From the IMG/VR virus record IMGVR_UViG_3300044712_000936, positions 23,170 to 87,169 of that record: a stretch of 64,000 nt of DNA; one strand, 5' to 3'. Made by a program: the position numbers and the translations under genes. Positions within the stretch are counted from its first letter, which is position 1. Every line of letters starts with the position of its first letter. Shown here in pieces: positions 3,762-56,762 of the stretch. This DNA is from a virus. The notes under the pieces were generated by a model that saw nothing but the letters and a program-made list of their open reading frames with translations, did no database searches and was not told the origin of the DNA.

Positions 3762-5133
3762 CTACGACCTGATCCGCCGAAAATTCGTCTGGTTTAGTCT
3801 GTAAATTACCCGCTTGCGGAGCAGCTACACCACGACTTTCAATTGCTTCCACCATATGCTCCGGTAAGTCACCAGATAACACAGCCAATTCACGAGCGGC
3901 TTGCAGATCCAATTCACCAGACTTGACACGCAAGACACGATCTTTACCGCGTGTAAAGCTTGCATCAGCCTTAGCTGTTTCTGCCTGTAAGTCATGCTCC
4001 ATAAACTGAAATTTGACATTTCTAGGCAAAATGCCGTTATTATTGAGCATATGCTCTATCATTTTCATCATCAAAGCCGGACCTTTACCCTGCGTTTTCA
4101 TGTGCAGAATATCGGACTGCTGAGACGAACCTAGATTGCCACCGGGTAAAGGCGCAAATTCCTGATAGTCCACACCGAAGGTCAAAGCTAACTGAGCAAT
4201 GTACCATTTCATTGTACTATCTTCATCAAAGGCATCAGGCAAAGAAGCCAGATTGATAGTTTTAACATCTACACCAGAAGTCGGGTCTAAACCAGCGATA
4301 ACAATAGGATTACTGTAGCGCAGCAAACCCATATTCAACGACTGGTTCTTACCAACAATCATGGCATCATCTAATTCGTTCTGGTTGACACCTGACACCA
4401 GATGCACGGCTCTACTGAAGTTACCGCTGACTTTTTCCCGTTTGTAAATTTCGATGTCGCGCAAAATCTGAGCAGCACGTAAACAACGGGTCAAAGCACA
4501 ATACTGCACTCCATAAGCTTCTTCGATAGGGGAGGGCATTTCCTCCAAAAGCAAAACTTGATACCACTTCATATAGGTTTCACGACCATTACGATCCCGA
4601 TACAGGACTGGCAATTCCTGATTGCCTGTTCGTTCACAACGAGCGGAATCAAGGTGAGTTATATTGATCACAGGTGAATCTGGTCTATCTTCTGTTCTGA
4701 TTAACTGCCAGAAAGCACCGTTATCTTGGGTATAAATATCAATTAAAGTTTTAAATAATAACTCAAACCAGCCGTTCCCATACTCAGCGTTAGCCAACAT
4801 CCGAGTCACAGCCCGAATAGTATTCTTGGGTCGAGGACCATTTGGATCAGTGGCTACAATTTCCCACTCAAAAGCGGAGATACGAGAAGTTGCAGCATAA
4901 ATCGCTGATGCTACCATAGGTTCAGTAGGCCAGAAATCTCGTAATTGTTTATCTCTATTAGCAGGTGTAGTAGACCAGGATGTAATATCATCAGCGGTGT
5001 TGGCTATATACAAAACATACTTTCCAAAACCCCCTCTTTCTTTGGGTTTAGGAAAGTCAACGACACTGTTTTTAACAATGTCTGGATTTATTTGCTTAAC
5101 TGTTTCAATCTGCACGTAATCATTGTCGGGCAT
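3733..5133 (-). CDS. Portal protein
   Basis: 466 aa directly after TerL; DNGAFW and LALTFGV segments resemble portal motifs. Confidence 0.75.
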   Translation of the reverse strand: MPDNDYVQIETVKQINPDIVKNSVVDFPKPKERGGFGKYVLYIANTADDITSWSTTPANRDKQLRDFWPTEPMVASAIYAATSRISAFEWEIVATDPNGPRPKNTIRAVTRMLANAEYGNGWFELLFKTLIDIYTQDNGAFWQLIRTEDRPDSPVINITHLDSARCERTGNQELPVLYRDRNGRETYMKWYQVLLLEEMPSPIEEAYGVQYCALTRCLRAAQILRDIEIYKREKVSGNFSRAVHLVSGVNQNELDDAMIVGKNQSLNMGLLRYSNPIVIAGLDPTSGVDVKTINLASLPDAFDEDSTMKWYIAQLALTFGVDYQEFAPLPGGNLGSSQQSDILHMKTQGKGPALMMKMIEHMLNNNGILPRNVKFQFMEHDLQAETAKADASFTRGKDRVLRVKSGELDLQAARELAVLSGDLPEHMVEAIESRGVAAPQAGNLQTKPDEFSADQVVGGMESDNVR

Positions 5134-6742
5134 TTCTAATATCCTGTAGTTTCTGTAATAATTCTTGTTCCGTCATGTTTAGGTTAAGCCTTTTTCCACC
5201 CGTTATATTTAAGCGCAAGCATTGTTCAGAAGCCATTGAGCAAGCCACAGCAGCATCAATTTTTAAAGAATCTGCTAACTTTACCAGCCGTAGTTTTCCA
5301 CCATCTGTCTGAGCACCCGCTTGTGTAATATGTTGGTATAGAGTCGGTAATTCACCCTGTTTGTTTAAACCGTCACCATTAACATCCCAAAACAGAGAAC
5401 GATTTAAAATGCGATCATACAGACCCTTATCAGCTACAGCACGATCTTTTTGCTGAGAGAAGTTGTACATCCATACTACATTTTCTTTGCGTAACCGTTG
5501 TGCCATATCCTCTAACTGATATTTATCGTAGGCTATGCAAACAACATTATATTTGGCACACAACTCTCTTAACTTTGGTTCTACATCTTCACTAATCTTA
5601 ATTGTACCACCGCTTTTTTGTGGAGTGAAAATATAACAAAAACGAACCAGTAAATTTGATGAATCTTCGTAGTCACGAGTCACACCAACGATAGCAGCAA
5701 AGTCATTCGTAATAGCACCGTCAACACCTAACACCAACGGAACACTTTTATCCAGAGCCGGTACATTTTCCTTTTTGACTGATTCCCATAACTGCGGCTG
5801 AATAAACGAATCAACCGGGGAAATCCACATATTACGATGGATACGATCAAATTCATGAGGAGGCAATAACTTGGCTTCCATCTGATAATATTCAGGTGTT
5901 TGCCACTTCATACGCGGCTCATGATCCCAATAACAGAATATACCAGCAGCTTCATTTGTAAAAACTACGTAGTCACCATTGCCTGACAAATTGGATCGTA
6001 AATCCATAAAGTCAGGATGTGGAGTACCTTCTTTAACCGCTGTTCGATACAGACCTTCCAGTAATTCACTTGTGCCAGTTTCCCCCGCATAACTTTCAAT
6101 CCAACGCATAGCATAGCCATATAGAGTAGGAGGCAAGGTCATTTCTGTAAACAATCGTTTCTTTGATTCCGTTTTAAAGCCCCACAACTCTGAATAACAC
6201 ACAAACAGAGGCTGTGAACCGGCTTCACCCTCAGCATCACAAGGGATAGCCCTAATTTTAGTGTTGTTTGGTAAAGTAACTTCTGTTAATTGGTAGTGAA
6301 CATCCTTAAATATTCCTCCTAGCTGTGCATGTAACTTAAAATTGGTACGAATAGGGGAATAAATACGGTCTGTAGCTTGAACACCGTCATTCGCAAGGCA
6401 ATAAACCTGTGAATAAGGACTATGGTAAGCAAAATACAAGGTTATAGCCGACGCTATAGCTGATTTACCAGACTTCTTAGGGGCAGAATAGATAACTGTA
6501 CTGTATTTGAGTCTTCCATCTGGTCTTTTAGACAATGCTTCGTTAACAATTCGTTTCTGGTGATCAGACAAGAGGAGAGGACCGGGGGGAAGTTTCTCAT
6601 CCGTTATTGGATCTCGAGGATCCGGTACATAATAGTTCTTTTCAATCCAATCAGCCGGACTCTGAACGATCTGCTGTTGTACGGACTGTAGGCGACTCGA
6701 TAAGCGCTCTGCCACCTGATCCAACAATGTCATGTACACCAC
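5120..6742 (-). CDS. terL: Terminase large subunit
   Basis: Walker A SAPKKSGKS; nuclease motifs LGVDG...DFAA, AYDKY, KIDAAVA. Confidence 0.9.
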   Translation of the reverse strand: MVYMTLLDQVAERLSSRLQSVQQQIVQSPADWIEKNYYVPDPRDPITDEKLPPGPLLLSDHQKRIVNEALSKRPDGRLKYSTVIYSAPKKSGKSAIASAITLYFAYHSPYSQVYCLANDGVQATDRIYSPIRTNFKLHAQLGGIFKDVHYQLTEVTLPNNTKIRAIPCDAEGEAGSQPLFVCYSELWGFKTESKKRLFTEMTLPPTLYGYAMRWIESYAGETGTSELLEGLYRTAVKEGTPHPDFMDLRSNLSGNGDYVVFTNEAAGIFCYWDHEPRMKWQTPEYYQMEAKLLPPHEFDRIHRNMWISPVDSFIQPQLWESVKKENVPALDKSVPLVLGVDGAITNDFAAIVGVTRDYEDSSNLLVRFCYIFTPQKSGGTIKISEDVEPKLRELCAKYNVVCIAYDKYQLEDMAQRLRKENVVWMYNFSQQKDRAVADKGLYDRILNRSLFWDVNGDGLNKQGELPTLYQHITQAGAQTDGGKLRLVKLADSLKIDAAVACSMASEQCLRLNITGGKRLNLNMTEQELLQKLQDIRNARQ

Positions 6743-7835: not shown

Positions 7836-8893
7836 CGTTCAACATCATCCAAATCCCAGGACCACTTCATTTTGTGTGTGTCAGGATAAAATACCACAGT
7901 GGGCCAGCCTAGTTGTCCTCGACTCCAGCCGCTGATGGTATATTTATCAGGACCAGTTTTAGCGGTTCCTGACTGCAACATCAAGACACGATTAGATGCT
8001 CTATTACCAGCTTCATATTCCCACTCAAAAGCAGGGGCTTCTGTTACTGCATACTGATGTTTATCACCCATTACCAGCAAATCGGCATTGGGAAAATCGA
8101 AATGGAAAGCTTTAGAATGAGGCTGCAAAGGATTCCACTGGCTGTCTCCCTTAAAGAAATGGGCAACTGCCACGTTATACACTTGAGATCCAACCTCAAA
8201 CTTGATATAGGCTTTTCCATCGTAAAACGGCTTGTTAAGAGCCAGATACAAAGCTTTGATAGGATTAGTACCCCAATTCTTAGAGAACCATTTTCCGCCG
8301 TGTTGACTTCCTAAGCCAAAAAGCAGTTTGTTACGTTCATCCAGCTTACCTAACAGTTTTTCAAGAATTTTAATTTGTGTTCTCGGATCAAATATCTGTT
8401 CGTAACCAGATTCTGCGTTGGGAAACTGAGCTAAGAAACCCTCTACATCATCTCCCAACGATGCCCAGTATACTCTCGGCATATCCAGGACGCGATTAAA
8501 TATTTTCTCGAAATCTTCATATGCGGTATATCTGCCCCCAAAATGCACACATGATGGGAACATAACCGCAACAGGTCGATCCGTATTAAAATTTAGTGTA
8601 TCCAGAGTATAAACCGGATCAATAGTGTTTTCTAGTGCAACCAGTTCTCTTGTTAGCTGAAAAATCCGATCTAAGTCAAGTTCTGGTAGTTGTTCCTGTG
8701 TCTGTATAGATACTTCTACAGTTTTCCAATAATCCGTGTCGCGCTCAGCCTTACCAGCCAAGTAATAACCCTTCCACCGTCTAGCTGTTCGATCACTTGT
8801 TGCTAAATCCATTTCGTAAAGTTGTCTACCAGTGGTATCGGGGTGATCTAATAAATAGTCATACGTCTCTGATGGAATTTTAGGCATATACAT
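7823..8893 (-). CDS. Calcineurin-like metallophosphoesterase (divergent) with N-terminal HTH-like region
   Basis: Motif series SCVHFG, LGDDVE, GSQH, VAH, MGDKH matches DxH/GD/GNH/H/GHxH order with substitutions. Confidence 0.65.
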   Translation of the reverse strand: MYMPKIPSETYDYLLDHPDTTGRQLYEMDLATSDRTARRWKGYYLAGKAERDTDYWKTVEVSIQTQEQLPELDLDRIFQLTRELVALENTIDPVYTLDTLNFNTDRPVAVMFPSCVHFGGRYTAYEDFEKIFNRVLDMPRVYWASLGDDVEGFLAQFPNAESGYEQIFDPRTQIKILEKLLGKLDERNKLLFGLGSQHGGKWFSKNWGTNPIKALYLALNKPFYDGKAYIKFEVGSQVYNVAVAHFFKGDSQWNPLQPHSKAFHFDFPNADLLVMGDKHQYAVTEAPAFEWEYEAGNRASNRVLMLQSGTAKTGPDKYTISGWSRGQLGWPTVVFYPDTHKMKWSWDLDDVERWLE

Positions 8894-40134: not shown

Positions 40135-40330
40135 GAGGTATTTATTCTTTTTTAATTGTTACAGCGTAGGTGACTATATTAAGTACATCCTGTACATTAT
40201 TTATGATAATACGATTAGCGGAAACAGCGTGCAACACTAGAAAAACAAGAAGTAAATTAGTGATAAAGGAGAGCACCAGCAGTAAAATAAGTATCATTGT
40301 TAGAATCCCGTTATAAAATAGATGAAAGGC

Positions 40331-40359
40331 TTGACAAACATTCAACTGTATAGTATTAT
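40331..40359 (+). promoter_or_regulatory. Promoter for the Y RNA array / Ro60 unit
   Basis: TTGACA-17 nt-TATTAT; predicted start about 40366, coinciding with the first RNA stem. Confidence 0.8.
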
Positions 40360-40366
40360 ATATCTA

Positions 40367-40461
40367 ACGTGGCCTGACAAAAAGCCTTTGCCTTGTCGGT
40401 TCGGTTGTAAACATTATGTGATCCTCCTTTCGAGTTTGGACTATGTAGTGTCAGGCCATGT
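40367..40461 (+). ncRNA. Stem-closed 95-nt RNA containing anti-SD-like GATCCTCCTTT
   Basis: 13-bp closing stem ACGTGGCCTGACA/TGTCAGGCCATGT beginning at the predicted TSS. Confidence 0.55.
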
Positions 40462-40478
40462 TTTCTTAGACCGTATAT

Positions 40479-40602
40479 TGCGGGTCGTTTGGTGTACGTT
40501 ACCGATGCTAACGGAGTGGTTAGAGGTTCGAATCCTTTACCCCGGCAACGGGGTTAGCTCAATTGGTAGAGCACTTAACCGTATACCTACCTATTATCCG
40601 CA
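40479..40602 (+). ncRNA. yrlA: Y RNA, YrlA type (tRNA mimic)
   Basis: Bulged-C stem TGCGGGT(C)G/TATCCGCA; second helix GGTGTACG/CGTATACC; permuted tRNA domain with T arm AGAGG-TTCGAAT-CCTTT, acceptor-like hairpin ACCCCG-GCAA-CGGGGT, D arm GCTC-AATTGGTA-GAGC; upstream of Ro60. Confidence 0.9.
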
Positions 40603-40617
40603 TGGTAATGAAAATGA

Positions 40618-40681
40618 ATCGGGTCGAATCGTTTTGGTTATCCTTTGACGATAATCACCAAGACGAGACAATTTATCCGGT
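40618..40681 (+). ncRNA. Short Y RNA (64 nt), Ro-binding module with minimal loop
   Basis: ATCGGGT(C)GAA/TTTATCCGGT bulged stem; TCGTTTTGGT/ACCAAGACGA; shared GGTTATC motif. Confidence 0.75.
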
Positions 40682-40837: not shown

Positions 40838-42418
40838 ATGGCAAAGTATACTCAGTATTTTGACCCGCAGAAGATTCCTCAGACTAAACCTTTACCCAAG
40901 AGTAAACAGGTTCCTAATAGTGCTGGTGGTTATGTTTACGCCATTGAACCCTGGTCGCAGCTGTATCGTTTTCTGATCCTGGGAACTACTGGTGGAACTT
41001 ATTACTCATCGGAGCACGATTTAACCGTGCAAAACTATGACGTTGTTTTGGCGTGCATAGAACAGGACGGTAGACGTGTTGTTGATATGATCCTGGAAGT
41101 TTCAAAAGAGGGGCGTGCAGCGAAAAATGATCAGGCATTGTTTACGCTGGCACTGTGCGCGGCGGCTGATTCGGTTGACACTCGTCGTTATGCCCTGATG
41201 AACTTGGATCAGGTTGCTCGAACCGGAACACACTTGTTTGAGTTTATGGAATACGTGCAGCTTTTCCGGCGTTGGGGTCGTGCTTTGCGTGCTGCTGTTG
41301 GCAACTGGTACAAGCGCAATCCTGATCATATCGCTTTGCAGGTTATGAAGTATCGCCAGCGTAACGGCTGGACTCATCGTGACGCTTTGCGTATGGCTCA
41401 TCCAACACCTGAAACGCCAGAGCAGAACGATTTGTTTAACTGGATCTGCAACGAAGAACCGTCTGAACTACTGTTGTCCAGCATTCCTATGATCAATGGA
41501 TTTATGCAAATTCAGCGTGCAACAACGGCGGCAGAGGCAGCGAAGTTGATTTCTGAGTATCGTTTGCCACGCGAGACTGTGCCTACACAGTTTCTAAAGG
41601 ATGCGGTTGTTTGGGATGCCTTGTTAGATCATATGCCCATGACAGCCCTGATTCGTAATCTTGGCAATATGAGTGCTTGCGGTTTGTTAAAGCCTAACAG
41701 TAATGCGGCAATGGAAGTTGCTGATAAACTGTCAGACGATCAGCATATCCGTTCTTCTCGTTTGCATCCAATGTCTATTTTAACGGCATTGTCAACTTAC
41801 CATTCTGGTTCAGGTTTACGGGGTCACAATACCTGGACTCCTGTTCCACAGGTAATTGATGCTCTGGACGATGCTTTTTACAAAGCTTTTAATAATGTTA
41901 CACCTACTAACAAACGATATTACGTCGGTGTCGATGTTTCTGGCAGCATGAGAACCAGTTTCTGTGACGGTGTTTTGTCCTGTTGTATGGGTGCAGCGGC
42001 TATGGCTATGGAAATCGCCCGAACCGAGCCACGCTACTTCATTCAGGGTTTTTGTGATACGATGGTTGATCTGGACTTTACAGCTAAGACGTCTCTTACT
42101 GATGCTGTTTCTAAGGCCAGCAAGCGCAATTTTGGTAGAACAGATTGTGCCCAACCAATGATTCACGCATTGAACAACGGCATCGAAGCTGATGTCTTTG
42201 TGGTCATTACGGATAATGAAACCTATGCAGGTAAAATTCATCCATCAGAAGCCTTGCGTGTGTACCGGAAACAAACAGGTATTCAGGCTAAGTTAGCGGT
42301 AATCGCTATGACTTCAACTGGCTTCTCTATTGCGGATCCGTCCGATCCGAACATGCTTGACTTTGTTGGTTTCGATGCAAACCTTCCATCTGCTTTGTCT
42401 CAGTTTGCTCTCCTGTAA
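40838..42418 (+). CDS. rsr: Ro60/Rsr TROVE-domain RNA-binding protein with vWA domain
   Basis: QVPNSAGGYVY, RFLILGT.GGTYY, RTGTHLF, WGRALR, KYRQRNGWTHRDALRMAHP, MPMTALIRNLG, MIDAS DVSGSM, TDNET. Confidence 0.97.
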   Translation: MAKYTQYFDPQKIPQTKPLPKSKQVPNSAGGYVYAIEPWSQLYRFLILGTTGGTYYSSEHDLTVQNYDVVLACIEQDGRRVVDMILEVSKEGRAAKNDQALFTLALCAAADSVDTRRYALMNLDQVARTGTHLFEFMEYVQLFRRWGRALRAAVGNWYKRNPDHIALQVMKYRQRNGWTHRDALRMAHPTPETPEQNDLFNWICNEEPSELLLSSIPMINGFMQIQRATTAAEAAKLISEYRLPRETVPTQFLKDAVVWDALLDHMPMTALIRNLGNMSACGLLKPNSNAAMEVADKLSDDQHIRSSRLHPMSILTALSTYHSGSGLRGHNTWTPVPQVIDALDDAFYKAFNNVTPTNKRYYVGVDVSGSMRTSFCDGVLSCCMGAAAMAMEIARTEPRYFIQGFCDTMVDLDFTAKTSLTDAVSKASKRNFGRTDCAQPMIHALNNGIEADVFVVITDNETYAGKIHPSEALRVYRKQTGIQAKLAVIAMTSTGFSIADPSDPNMLDFVGFDANLPSALSQFALL

Positions 42419-43996: not shown

Positions 43997-44556
43997 TAAT
44001 GCGTAAGGTGCTTGTTGTTGCTCTGTTTTTGATTGCTTTTGTTGGTACGTTCGCTGGTTCTTGTGATGACACAACCGCAGTAGAAAAAGAGCGGAATGCC
44101 ACAAATAACCAGATGAGTCAGCTTCTGAATTCACAACCCATTCCGGTTTTTGAGTGGAGTCTTGAGCGCGAAATTGTGATTGATATTTTCCGTGCTCGTA
44201 ATGAAGCAGTTTCTACTTGGAGTGTTGTCCAGAACCCTTATACGGGCGCAATTATGTTTGAATGCCCATCTATCGGCTATCCCATTCCTGGTGGAACTAA
44301 GTTGACTAATCCTTATCAAATTCCTGGTAATGATTGGAGTAATACCAGCATCCCACAGGCAGAGCCAAATGGATTGTATATTCCCGAAAGTTCAGCTGGA
44401 ACCTACATTAACTGTGTGAACGAAAACGGTACAGTCAGTCCGGTATTTGAAGAATTTTACGTGCAAACCTTCCCCTTCCCGGTTGAAGAAATTGACGGTA
44501 AGCTGGTACGGGTTAAGGGTGTCGAACCAACTATTGCAATTCAGACTCAGAAGTAA
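43990..44556 (+). CDS. Putative lipoprotein
   Basis: MRK plus hydrophobic stretch plus FAGSC lipobox-like site. Confidence 0.6.
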   Translation: MLIMRKVLVVALFLIAFVGTFAGSCDDTTAVEKERNATNNQMSQLLNSQPIPVFEWSLEREIVIDIFRARNEAVSTWSVVQNPYTGAIMFECPSIGYPIPGGTKLTNPYQIPGNDWSNTSIPQAEPNGLYIPESSAGTYINCVNENGTVSPVFEEFYVQTFPFPVEEIDGKLVRVKGVEPTIAIQTQK

Positions 44557-44558
44557 TT

Positions 44559-44678
44559 GGGGGAGAAATAGGATCGATTGGGTGCGGGGATGCCTAGTAG
44601 GTGAAGGCGATTGAGCAAGACTGAAAAGCATCCTTAACCGCATTCAAGAACCGGGTGCAATTCCCGGCTCCTCCACCA
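44559..44678 (+). ncRNA. Mini-tmRNA: tRNA-Ala-like domain without a normal mRNA domain
   Basis: Acceptor GGGGGAG/CTCCTCC-A-CCA with G3-U70; tmRNA-like D-loop AAATAGGATCGA with no D stem; long P2-like helix TTGGGTGCGG.GGATGC/GCATCC..CCGCATTCAA; T arm CCGGG-TGCAATT-CCCGG. Confidence 0.85.
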
Positions 44679-44681
44679 TAC

Positions 44682-44753
44682 GCTACAGTAGCGCAACGGT
44701 AGAGCACCAGACTTTTAATCTGTAGGTTGGAGGTTCGAATCCTCTCTGTAGCA
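44682..44753 (+). tRNA. tRNA-Lys(UUU)
   Basis: GCTACAG/CTGTAGC; CAGA-CTTTTAA-TCTG; GGTTCGAATCC. Confidence 0.9.
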
Positions 44754-44756
44754 CAG

Positions 44757-44838
44757 GCAGGTGTGGTGAAATCGGAAAACACAATTCACTTAAAATGAAT
44801 CGGGGAAACCCTTATCGGTTCGAATCCGATCACCTGCA
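44757..44838 (+). tRNA. tRNA-Leu(UAA)
   Basis: GCAGGTG/CACCTGC; ATTCA-CTTAAAA-TGAAT; variable arm GGG-GAAA-CCC-like. Confidence 0.9.
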
Positions 44839-44861
44839 TAGATTATATTGTAGGAGCAAAT

Positions 44862-45386
44862 ATGGTATACGAACTAAGAAAACGTGGTAATGGATACTTA
44901 TATTTTATAGATAAAAATCATCCACTTGCCAGAAAAGAAAGCAGTTACATGGTGTATTACCATCGTCATATAGCATCGTTGAAAATCGGTAGATGGCTTA
45001 ACGAGGACGAGCATGTACATCATATTGACGGAAACACGTACAATAACGATCCCGATAATTTAGAAATTATGTCTAATTCTGAGCATACTTCTGTTCATCA
45101 TCCAGGTAATAAAAGGGCTATTAAAAAATGTATGTATTGCCATAAAGAATACGAACAAATAGCACAAACACAAAAATACTGCTCTGATAAATGTGCTCAT
45201 TTGGGTAATAGAAAAGTGAATAGGCCGTCTAAAGAAGAATTAGAACAAGAAATAATGGCTATGAATTGGTTAGCGTTAGGTAGAAAGTACGGTGTAAGCG
45301 ACAATGCTGTAAGAAAGTGGGCAAAAGATTATAGTATCCCGGTAATAAAAAGAAAATACACACGCTCCCGTAGCTCAGCGGATTAG
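44862..45386 (+). CDS. HNH homing endonuclease inside tRNA cluster
   Basis: YYHRHIA...VHHIDGNTYNNDPDNLE...EHTSVH; CxxC..YCSDKC; C-terminal HTH. Confidence 0.88.
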   Translation: MVYELRKRGNGYLYFIDKNHPLARKESSYMVYYHRHIASLKIGRWLNEDEHVHHIDGNTYNNDPDNLEIMSNSEHTSVHHPGNKRAIKKCMYCHKEYEQIAQTQKYCSDKCAHLGNRKVNRPSKEELEQEIMAMNWLALGRKYGVSDNAVRKWAKDYSIPVIKRKYTRSRSSAD

Positions 45387-45440
45387 AGCCGCCGCCCTCT
45401 AAGCGGTGTGGTGTCGAGAGTTCGAATCTCTCCGGGAGCA
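45364..45440 (+). tRNA. tRNA-Arg(UCU), atypical C33
   Basis: GCTCCCG/CGGGAGC; GCCGC-CCTCTAA-GCGGT; A20 Arg determinant; overlaps the 3' end of the HNH ORF. Confidence 0.8.
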
Positions 45441-45443
45441 CAC

Positions 45444-45527
45444 GGAGACAAAGCACTAATGGATGTGCGCCAGTCTGTAGAACTGGTTAGCTTAGGCTAG
45501 TTGGTGGTTCGAGTCCACCTGTCTCCA
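45444..45527 (+). tRNA. tRNA-Tyr(GUA)
   Basis: GGAGACA/TGTCTCC; CCAGT-CTGTAGA-ACTGG; long variable arm TAGC-TTAG-GCTA. Confidence 0.88.
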
Positions 45528-46393
45528 CTTAGATTAGCATAGACTAATCTAGATGAATATATGATGTGTGCTATCCCCGGCAGCAAAATGACTAGACTAA
45601 CATCAGGTAAAAGTCGGGGCTGAAAGGTGCGTAATCTCGCAACAATTTATTCTGATGTTGGTCTTTAAAAAGGTATAATTGATATGATTATTTATCGCAT
45701 TAAAAATACTGTCACTGGCGAGTTTGTTTTAGGCATTTTTACAAACAAAGATAACGTTGACACTCTTTGTAAAGAGTTTGGTTATTGCCAGCCTTATTAC
45801 ACAATAAATGCTTATCAGACTAGGTTAATAGAGACTTATTCTGTTGAATCTGAGCATATTAACCTAACATCTATGCCTGTGTGGGAAATATACTGCACGT
45901 TAGCAGGGACATCATATTTTGGAGAGGACGCTTCTTATACAGGCAAGCTAGGAGAGCATCGAGGGCTTAATTTTGCTGATGCTTGCCACCATTTCATGAT
46001 CTCTGAAGGCAGAGAAGACGAGTACGATTCTGTTGCTAACGGCATTAAAATATGTGATGAATGGGGCAAACAAATTTCAGTAAATAAATTTAGCGGATAC
46101 ATAAAGAAAACTTGAGGTTTTTATGCAAACCGTGTATACTTCTATCCTCCGTTTAGACATTATCAGTACCGGAGAATCAATCATAGAAGAACCAACCAGT
46201 GAAAGTGCTAAAAACTGGCATAAATATATCTGTAAGAAGGTATTAAGCGATAAAAGACGAGCGGAAGAAGTAAGAAAAGCTATATTGGCGAACGATGTAA
46301 CAGTAGCTTGGGCTGACTTTGATTTGCTAGTGTCTAACGGTATTCCGTTAGGGGAATTAAAGGCGCGGTCTAAGATTATCTGGAAAGGGTTGG

Positions 46394-55780: not shown

Positions 55781-55805
55781 CAAACATCTGATTGTGTTAT
55801 ATAAT
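55777..55805 (+). promoter_or_regulatory. Consensus promoter for the recombinase
   Basis: TTGACA-17 nt-TATAAT. Confidence 0.85.
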
Positions 55806-55844
55806 TATAGTATTGATAAGATAGCTTCGAGTGTGAGGACTCTG

Positions 55845-56762
55845 ATGAACAATTCATTGGCATTGACTACTGTAGAAGTCAACGCAACGAGGGAAATTCT
55901 TTCCACGATGTTCGTTGGTATGTCACCTTTGTCCCGTAAGGCATATGAAGAATCCATCCGGCAATTTCTACAGTTTGCCCTGACACGATCCTCTATTCAT
56001 CCTTATCAGAGTCCTCACACTGCTTTTTTGGCTTATAAAGACGAGTTAATTAAGCAGTATAAGGCGGCAACAGTAAACAAGAAGCTATCAGCTATTCGCC
56101 AGTTTTTCAAGTTCTGCTTGGCGGAAAAGTTGATCGATGAAGGTCAGTATTACACCATTTGCACGGTTCGCAACGAGAAGGAACAGAAACCTTTTCGGAC
56201 ATGGTTAGATGAAAAATCAGCAAATGATATGCTGAATGCTCCTGATACGAGCACGGTTAAGGGTACGCGGGATCGTTTGGTAATTTTCTTAATGCTGGTT
56301 TTAGGTCTGCGTCGTGCAGAAGTGACTAAATTGCAGTGGAAACAACTACAGCGGGTCGATGGTTATTGGCTGTTAGTTGACGTATGGGGCAAGGGTAATT
56401 CACTGGGAACTATCAAGATCCCTGAAATTTATATGAGCATCTTTGATGATTATGGTTACTCTGACAATCCAGAAGATTATATGGTTGTCTCAGTCAACAA
56501 GGCGGGGGTTAAGGGTAAACGTATCAGTGTAGACGCCATTAACGATATTATCGCTACCTATGCGGAACAGCTGGACGTTAAAGCCAGCCCTCACACCTTA
56601 CGCCGGACGTGCGGTACGGTAGCTATGAAGAACACCAAAGATATTCGGATGGTTCAGCGCTTGCTTCGCCATTCGTCACAGCAGAACACAGAAAAGTATC
56701 TGGCGGAAGTTCTTAATTTGGAAAACTCTGCCACAGATTATACAAATTATGTGCTTGAGTGA
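55845..56762 (+). CDS. Tyrosine recombinase (XerC/D-like; start revised to ATG 55845)
   Basis: GLRRAEV, GKG, PHTLRR, LLRH, TEKY catalytic set; GAGG RBS before 55845. Confidence 0.92.
   Translation: MNNSLALTTVEVNATREILSTMFVGMSPLSRKAYEESIRQFLQFALTRSSIHPYQSPHTAFLAYKDELIKQYKAATVNKKLSAIRQFFKFCLAEKLIDEGQYYTICTVRNEKEQKPFRTWLDEKSANDMLNAPDTSTVKGTRDRLVIFLMLVLGLRRAEVTKLQWKQLQRVDGYWLLVDVWGKGNSLGTIKIPEIYMSIFDDYGYSDNPEDYMVVSVNKAGVKGKRISVDAINDIIATYAEQLDVKASPHTLRRTCGTVAMKNTKDIRMVQRLLRHSSQQNTEKYLAEVLNLENSATDYTNYVLE

Follow-up and report, generated by a model that had tools for sequence, protein, structure and literature searches.

A 120-nt tmRNA-type tRNA-like domain without a tag-reading domain heads a tRNA array in an uncultured soil phage

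TLD-only tmRNAs, in which the tRNA-like domain (TLD) of tmRNA stands without a tag-coding sequence, are a published class of phage RNAs that has remained almost unstudied. Hudson, Lau and Williams (2014; PMC4131195) listed the "TLD only" tmRNA of Mycobacterium phage DS6A, an RNA that is "little more than the TLD," and both the listing and the description were repeated in PMC11915505. According to work cited in PMC4131195, a similar TLD molecule inhibits tmRNA strongly irrespective of its ability to be charged, possibly through titration of SmpB (Mao et al. 2009), and a TLD-only RNA in E. coli inhibited tmRNA rather than replacing it. Bacterial tmRNAs with 2-amino-acid tags have also been reported, and the CDS-less tmRNAs of organelles are conserved together with SmpB (PMC11915505). 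Since ARAGORN and Rfam at its gathering score both miss TLD-only tmRNAs, these RNAs are absent from phage annotations.

The locus described here belongs to an uncultured soil phage represented by an 87,169-bp IMG/VR virus record with terminal repeats; the stretch of 64,000 nt that was analyzed, referred to as the window, corresponds to bases 23170 to 87169 of that record. The phage genome encodes a large terminase, a DnaB-like helicase, a primase, and a family-A DNA polymerase. No close cultured relative of the phage was found, and the identity of its polymerase to those of known phages does not exceed about 28%. A sequence-only reading of the window had proposed a tmRNA TLD without a tag-reading domain at positions 44559 to 44678 on the + strand, and the 120-nt RNA element at this site indeed forms a complete TLD when folded. 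The Rfam tmRNA model RF00023, used with permissive thresholds, aligned globally and end to end to exactly these coordinates with a score of 40 bits (E = 2e-13 in the 8.5 kb searched and 5e-14 in 2.2 kb). Because the alignment is global, falls at the exact coordinates, and includes all TLD parts, the observation of a tmRNA-type TLD without a tag-reading domain is confirmed, far beyond chance. In this alignment, 292 consensus positions of RF00023 are replaced by 36 nt of the element, and PK1 to PK4 are absent. Every TLD feature that had been listed from the sequence was present in the sequence, the fold, and the RF00023 alignment (Table 1).

Table 1. Parts of the TLD element and the tRNA array that follows it (window positions)
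Feature	Position	Strand	Evidence
Acceptor stem, 5′ strand GGGGGAG; holds G3 of G3-U70	44559-44565	+	7/7 pairs with 44668-44674
Stemless D-loop analogue AAAUAGGAUCGA, with tmRNA-type GG...UCGA motif	44566-44577	+	Aligned to RF00023 D-loop
Helix 2 (P2), 5′ strand, 16 nt	44578-44593	+	MFE fold and Rfam alignment
Apical loop, 34 nt, in place of tmRNA PK1-4 and tag frame	44594-44627	+	Sequence, fold, and Rfam alignment
Helix 2, 3′ strand with 4-nt UUAA bulge	44628-44647	+	Fold and Rfam alignment
T arm, 5-bp stem, loop UGCAAUU (G, not U, at position 55)	44651-44667	+	Fold and Rfam alignment
Acceptor stem, 3′ strand CUCCUCC (U70), discriminator A73, encoded CCA	44668-44678	+	Sequence, fold, and Rfam alignment
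tRNA array: Lys(UUU), Leu(UAA), HNH endonuclease ORF, Arg(UCU), Tyr(GUA)	44682-45528	+	tRNA calls

In the numbering of the element, G1 to G7 pair with C110 to C116 at all seven positions, the G3-U70 pair included, and the encoded ACCA follows at 44675 to 44678. The D-loop analogue is 12 nt long, unpaired, and ends at its 3′ side in GGAUCGA; motifs of this family are found in 47 distinct phage mini-tmRNAs. Helix 2 consists of 16 bp in two blocks of 10 and 6 bp with the UUAA bulge between them, and the junction on its 3′ side is GAA, compared to GAC in most tmRNAs. The apical loop is exactly as long as had been proposed, carries two UAG and three UGA triplets (several TAG/TGA had been noted), and is mostly unstructured in the fold. 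All 28 base pairs, G3-U70, and the CCA are intact, and the minimum free energy of the element was −46.8 kcal/mol (z = −2.85 versus shuffles).

Of the tmRNA finders suggested by the sequence-only reading, the Rfam tmRNA model gave a positive result, albeit at a score below the gathering score of 47, whereas ARAGORN called neither a tRNA nor a tmRNA nor a tag at 44559 to 44678. An Rfam scan at gathering thresholds reported only the tRNAs and missed the element. Features of a tRNA-Ala, namely, an RF00005 match, a D stem, or a 7-nt anticodon loop, were not found at the element, and the mitochondrial tmRNA model RF02544 gave no match at E values up to 10 in a permissive scan of 44480 to 44760.

The element stands at the head of the tRNA array. 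The stop codon of the upstream ORF lies 2 nt before its G1, and tRNA-Lys begins 3 nt past its CCA. None of the four neighboring tRNAs (Lys, Leu, Arg, and Tyr) has an encoded CCA, unlike the element, which agrees with the earlier statement that the CCA is unique in the cluster and that the element comes first. A search of the whole 87-kb phage genome found no full-length tmRNA, second tmRNA piece, or SmpB gene, and a simple scan detected no promoter or terminator close to the element. The region was present in two rhizosphere metagenome DNA runs, the independent one being identical where the element was covered, which carries no information on expression or variation; none of the sequencing runs listed for the sequence was an RNA run. 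The HNH endonuclease ORF that splits the tRNA array in its middle (44862 to 45386, + strand; phrog_15471, E = 9e-28) overlaps the start of tRNA-Arg with its final 23 nt. Elsewhere in the window, a Ro60 orthologue (40838 to 42418, + strand) has TROVE and Ro60 vWA domains (E = 9e-42 and 3e-59, respectively), and immediately upstream of it is a YrlA-type Y RNA match (40489 to 40592, + strand; 39 bits against a gathering score of 69, E = 6e-6). The "ORF" at 40322 to 40648, which overlaps the YrlA-type match, is probably not a gene. A tyrosine recombinase is encoded at 55794 to 56762 (+ strand; 75 bits to PF00589) in a genome that otherwise looks lytic, with its replication and packaging set.

The sequence-only reading knew of precedents for such an RNA in mitochondria alone, and this view did not hold: apart from the published DS6A RNA (PMC4131195; PMC11915505), 60 further viral examples were found. 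IMG/VR was scanned with a pattern consisting of a tmRNA-type 5′ end and D-loop, followed after 40 to 70 nt by a T arm and CUCCACCA. The 76 loci recovered yielded 60 stand-alone, one-piece mini-tmRNAs (minis) of 82 to 112 nt with 47 distinct sequences, a count that leaves out tRNA-Ala genes and the ends of real tmRNAs. Each of the 60 combines a fully paired (7/7) acceptor stem with G3-U70 and ACCA, and none had a tRNA or tmRNA call or a second copy of either half nearby. An independent case, the 83-nt mini L076, came from a structural regular expression run over unrelated viral loci. A covariance model built from the window element alone (model R1) found 58 of the 60 minis together with DS6A (31.7 bits, E = 3e-6) and L076 (30.9 bits), each with an E value below 1e-4. 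In the resulting alignment, which was fitted to the model, 96.3% of the cells pair, both-side changes occur in 26 of the 28 pairs, and none of 500 shuffles nor the slid controls comes near this pairing. The G3-U70 pair was kept in 49 of the 53 distinct rows.

Other properties recur as well. Twenty-two of the 60 minis lie within tRNA arrays, and 10 of these 22 head the array like the window element; the T-loop UGCAAUU is shared with 11 other phage minis. At 120 nt, the window element is the longest seen, its middle section (helix 2 and loop) measuring 72 nt compared to 35 to 64 nt elsewhere. Taken by sequence and fold, the window element is a further member of the published phage class of TLD-only (CDS-less) tmRNAs, and the class, judged from these contigs, is common in uncultured phages and ranges at least from 80 to 120 nt. 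Some of the minis carry additions of their own. The 97-nt minis (L438, L451, L453, L457, L476, L478, L480, L491, L494, and L495) have four to five GUCAC repeats in a helix-2 extension, and conserved structured inserts are present in families of 111 to 112 nt and 105 to 106 nt.

Close copies of the window element were not found in viral contigs by exact or degenerate pattern scans. Its 5′ 19-mer had no match there, and a pattern of GGATCGA plus T arm gave only chance matches. The one match to a strict long-form pattern was false, as it sits upstream of a permuted tmRNA. In IMG/VR, neither the upstream 188-amino-acid protein nor Ro60 has a close relative, and none of the contigs carrying minis is related to this phage. 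No close relative of the phage, in which selection on this particular copy would show, was thus found.

The family of the upstream 188-amino-acid protein has more than 100 members (118 homologues), and in the 80 viral loci that have a homologue, the gene is frequently followed by a tRNA array. In two of these distant phages, a complete tmRNA stands ahead of the tRNAs at the equivalent place: a standard tmRNA in L148 (106 bits, tag GENMPLQEAA) and a permuted tmRNA in L184 (87.5 bits), the TLDs of which are not similar to that of the window element. The sequence-only reading had held that a full-length tmRNA at this place in close relatives, a sign of recent deletion, would refute it; no close relatives were found, and the distant L148 and L184 do carry one. 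A second "mini" at L184:5640-5737 was rejected, being the acceptor piece of the permuted tmRNA. The same contig contains, at 6218 to 6258 (+ strand) and 270 nt past the permuted tmRNA, a 41-nt element that consists solely of a T arm, ACCA, and an alanine-type acceptor stem with G3-U70; it could be an att remnant or a relative of the minis that is no larger than a minihelix. In another contig, L191, which has 19 tRNA genes, a 72-nt alanine-type tRNA-like gene (8302 to 8373, − strand) has a UGC anticodon loop and no D arm and was not called by ARAGORN.

One arrangement bears on how a one-piece TLD might arise. In L447 (4369 to 4459, − strand) and L461 (3367 to 3457, + strand), the first 24 nt of a coding piece are joined to an entire acceptor piece, giving a one-piece TLD of 91 nt. 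This TLD is flanked by a spare acceptor piece upstream and by a complete permuted tmRNA (108.9 bits with Rfam, tag ANDNYAPRLALAA), and its 3′ half doubles as the acceptor piece of that complete tmRNA. The arrangement has the appearance of a transitional form from two-piece tmRNA genes to mini-tmRNAs, and the fusion shows one route by which the former could give rise to the latter.

A scan of metagenomes gave 120 matches, all of which were rejected as minis: 15 were 3′ ends of full-length tmRNAs, 4 were tRNA-Ala genes, and about 70 represent a separate element of 124 to 129 nt that has no TLD fold. This element, shared by about 70 of the metagenome contigs L208 to L327 (e.g., L260:749-876 and 4262-4389; also L222, L300, and L310), has a perfect tmRNA 3′ end as its terminus; ahead of this end are GGGGACTCCA-like decamers in tandem and a conserved GTCTCCAAAATATCTCC motif. 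In some contigs, two copies lie 2.5 to 6.5 kb apart. Possibly, the element serves as the attachment region of islands that inserted in tandem into ssrA.

As to function, our preferred reading, to which we give a probability of about 60%, is that the window element is a TLD-only (CDS-less) tmRNA gene whose product competes with host tmRNA and lowers trans-translation. The RNA would be cotranscribed with the upstream genes and the tRNA array and released by tRNA processing enzymes, with RNase P acting at G1 and trimming proceeding to the encoded CCA. Folded into an acceptor/T-arm stack plus helix 2, it would bind host SmpB in the infected cell, and, as G3-U70 and A73 are present, it would probably also be alanylated and bound by EF-Tu. 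By binding SmpB (and probably EF-Tu), the mini-tmRNA would act as a competitor of host tmRNA for SmpB and possibly also for AlaRS and EF-Tu, which would lead to less ssrA tagging and trans-translation during infection. The sequence-only reading had proposed two functions, an SmpB sponge and a rescue RNA, and these are, in our comparison, the ones that the literature offers for this RNA type. The former follows what Hudson et al. 2014 (PMC4131195), citing Mao et al. 2009, put forward for DS6A; the latter matches statements on the CDS-less tmRNAs of organelles (PMC11915505). The long helix 2 and 34-nt loop, 72 nt in all, are not needed by a pure SmpB decoy and are not explained by the competition model, and the GAA junction, unusual among tmRNAs, also counts against this model.

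A rescue function, tag-free or with a short tag, would have the alanyl-mini-tmRNA enter stalled ribosomes together with SmpB and donate its alanine, such that the ribosomes are freed without a degradation tag. Either another factor would then release the peptide, or translation would resume in the loop on the frame starting at GCG, or from GUG. We consider such a function unlikely. It would fit the intact alanine identity set (G3-U70, A73, and encoded CCA), kept although the neighboring tRNAs are without CCA, as well as the mostly unstructured loop, from which a frame of 5 to 7 codons can be read directly (UAG UAG GUG AAG GCG AUU GAG CAA GAC UGA). The GCG of this frame starts 13 nt past helix 2, with two in-frame UAG before it and UGA at the end, and the 2-amino-acid bacterial tags and SmpB-linked organelle tmRNAs mentioned above (PMC11915505) offer precedents. 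However, pseudoknot 1 is absent, only 3 nt separate the stop codon from helix 2, a 34-nt loop may well hold a frame of this size by chance, no tag was called by ARAGORN, and there is no homologue in which codon-like conservation could show. Furthermore, the minis of 82 to 90 nt have no room for a frame, which means that the class as a whole needs none, and the TLD-only RNA in E. coli, as cited in PMC4131195, acted as an inhibitor of tmRNA and not as a replacement for it. That the loop is a working message, on which translation resumes at GCG or GUG, adds AIEQD or VKAIEQD, and stops at UGA, appears highly improbable. If true, the element would be the smallest pseudoknot-free tmRNA to complete trans-translation and would put a non-degrading tag on rescued phage proteins.

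The element might also have no function and be the undecayed stump of a full-length phage tmRNA, standard or permuted, that lost its middle by deletion or recombination. The complete tmRNAs of L148 and L184 at the equivalent position are consistent with such an origin, the fused TLD beside a complete permuted tmRNA in L447 and L461 shows how stumps arise, and the lack of close relatives, in which purifying selection on this copy could be seen, leaves room for it. We nevertheless regard a remnant as less likely again than a rescue RNA. Every base pair, G3-U70, and the CCA are intact, and the deletion must have left both strands of the 16-bp helix 2 in register; this helix is unlike those of the nearest full-length tmRNAs in sequence yet is paired. 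In addition, the same architecture is seen, as independent occurrences with compensatory changes, in no fewer than 60 unrelated viral contigs. Least weight of all, close to none, is given to an attachment site, in which the tmRNA-like 3′ end would be the attP core of a temperate phage integrating into host ssrA. The genome does encode a tyrosine recombinase, ssrA is described as a common integration target in PMC11915505, and the last 26 to 28 nt of the element are identical to real tmRNA 3′ ends. An att core needs the 3′ segment only and would not require the 5′ half, whereas the 5′ acceptor strand, the D-loop, and the 5′ strand of helix 2 are also present here and perfectly paired. Neither standard nor permuted ssrA genes have the parts contiguous in this order, the recombinase gene is 11 kb away, and the element is packed inside a tRNA array.

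Competition with host tmRNA remains the reading that we favor. If TLD-only RNAs turn off or divert the ribosome rescue of the host, they would constitute a widespread phage tactic against a core bacterial quality control system, and the long forms, with their extra helix-2 and loop sequence, would be the best place to look for roles beyond SmpB sequestering. This locus alone is a modest result that confirms a known type.

Compared to known systems, the window element is of one kind with the DS6A mini (tmRNA Website tmID 11587; JN698994, 28478 to 28557). Both are phage encoded and in one piece; both have a G3-U70 acceptor, a stemless UCGA D-loop, a T arm, and a loop-closed helix-2 stub; and in both, the pseudoknots and the tag are absent. 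However, the DS6A mini is 80 nt long with a 5-bp helix 2 and a ∼20-nt loop, compared to 120 nt, 16 bp, and 34 nt for the window element, its record ends in CUA rather than CCA, and no primary-sequence similarity between the two is detectable by BLAST. The nearest mini is the 83-nt RNA of L462 and L474 (55.7 bits with model R1), which has its D-loop (AAAUAG.GUCGAU) and the T-loop UGCAAUU in common with the window element. The IMG/VR minis share the architecture but have no counterpart to the helix-2 extension and loop sequence. The UGCAAUU loop (G55) is a natural variant that 101 bacterial species, spread over many phyla, have in their tmRNAs, and it therefore does not identify the host; the acceptor stem of the window element occurs in none of these tmRNAs. 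The CDS-less tmRNAs of organelles (RF02544 in jakobid and oomycete mitochondria; plastid forms of ∼65 bp, PMC11915505) likewise have a TLD without a tag frame but differ in being organellar, in several cases permuted, and in co-occurring with imported SmpB. Full-length tmRNAs (RF00023; permuted RF04321 and RF01849) align with the element over the whole length of the TLD and helix 2. Among them are the permuted tmRNAs of five viral contigs (L002 to L006), which are complete two-piece tmRNAs with the tag AEANGYALAA and 114 bits on the permuted tmRNA model. The 3′ 26 nt of their acceptor pieces are identical to the window element, and their coding pieces differ from it at two positions in the 5′ strand and D-loop (5′ 20 nt). 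Their helix 2, in contrast, has a completely different sequence from that of the window element, which still pairs. This means that the conserved core is the TLD itself, and its near identity to that of the L002 to L006 tmRNAs is compatible with an origin of the window element from a two-piece gene.
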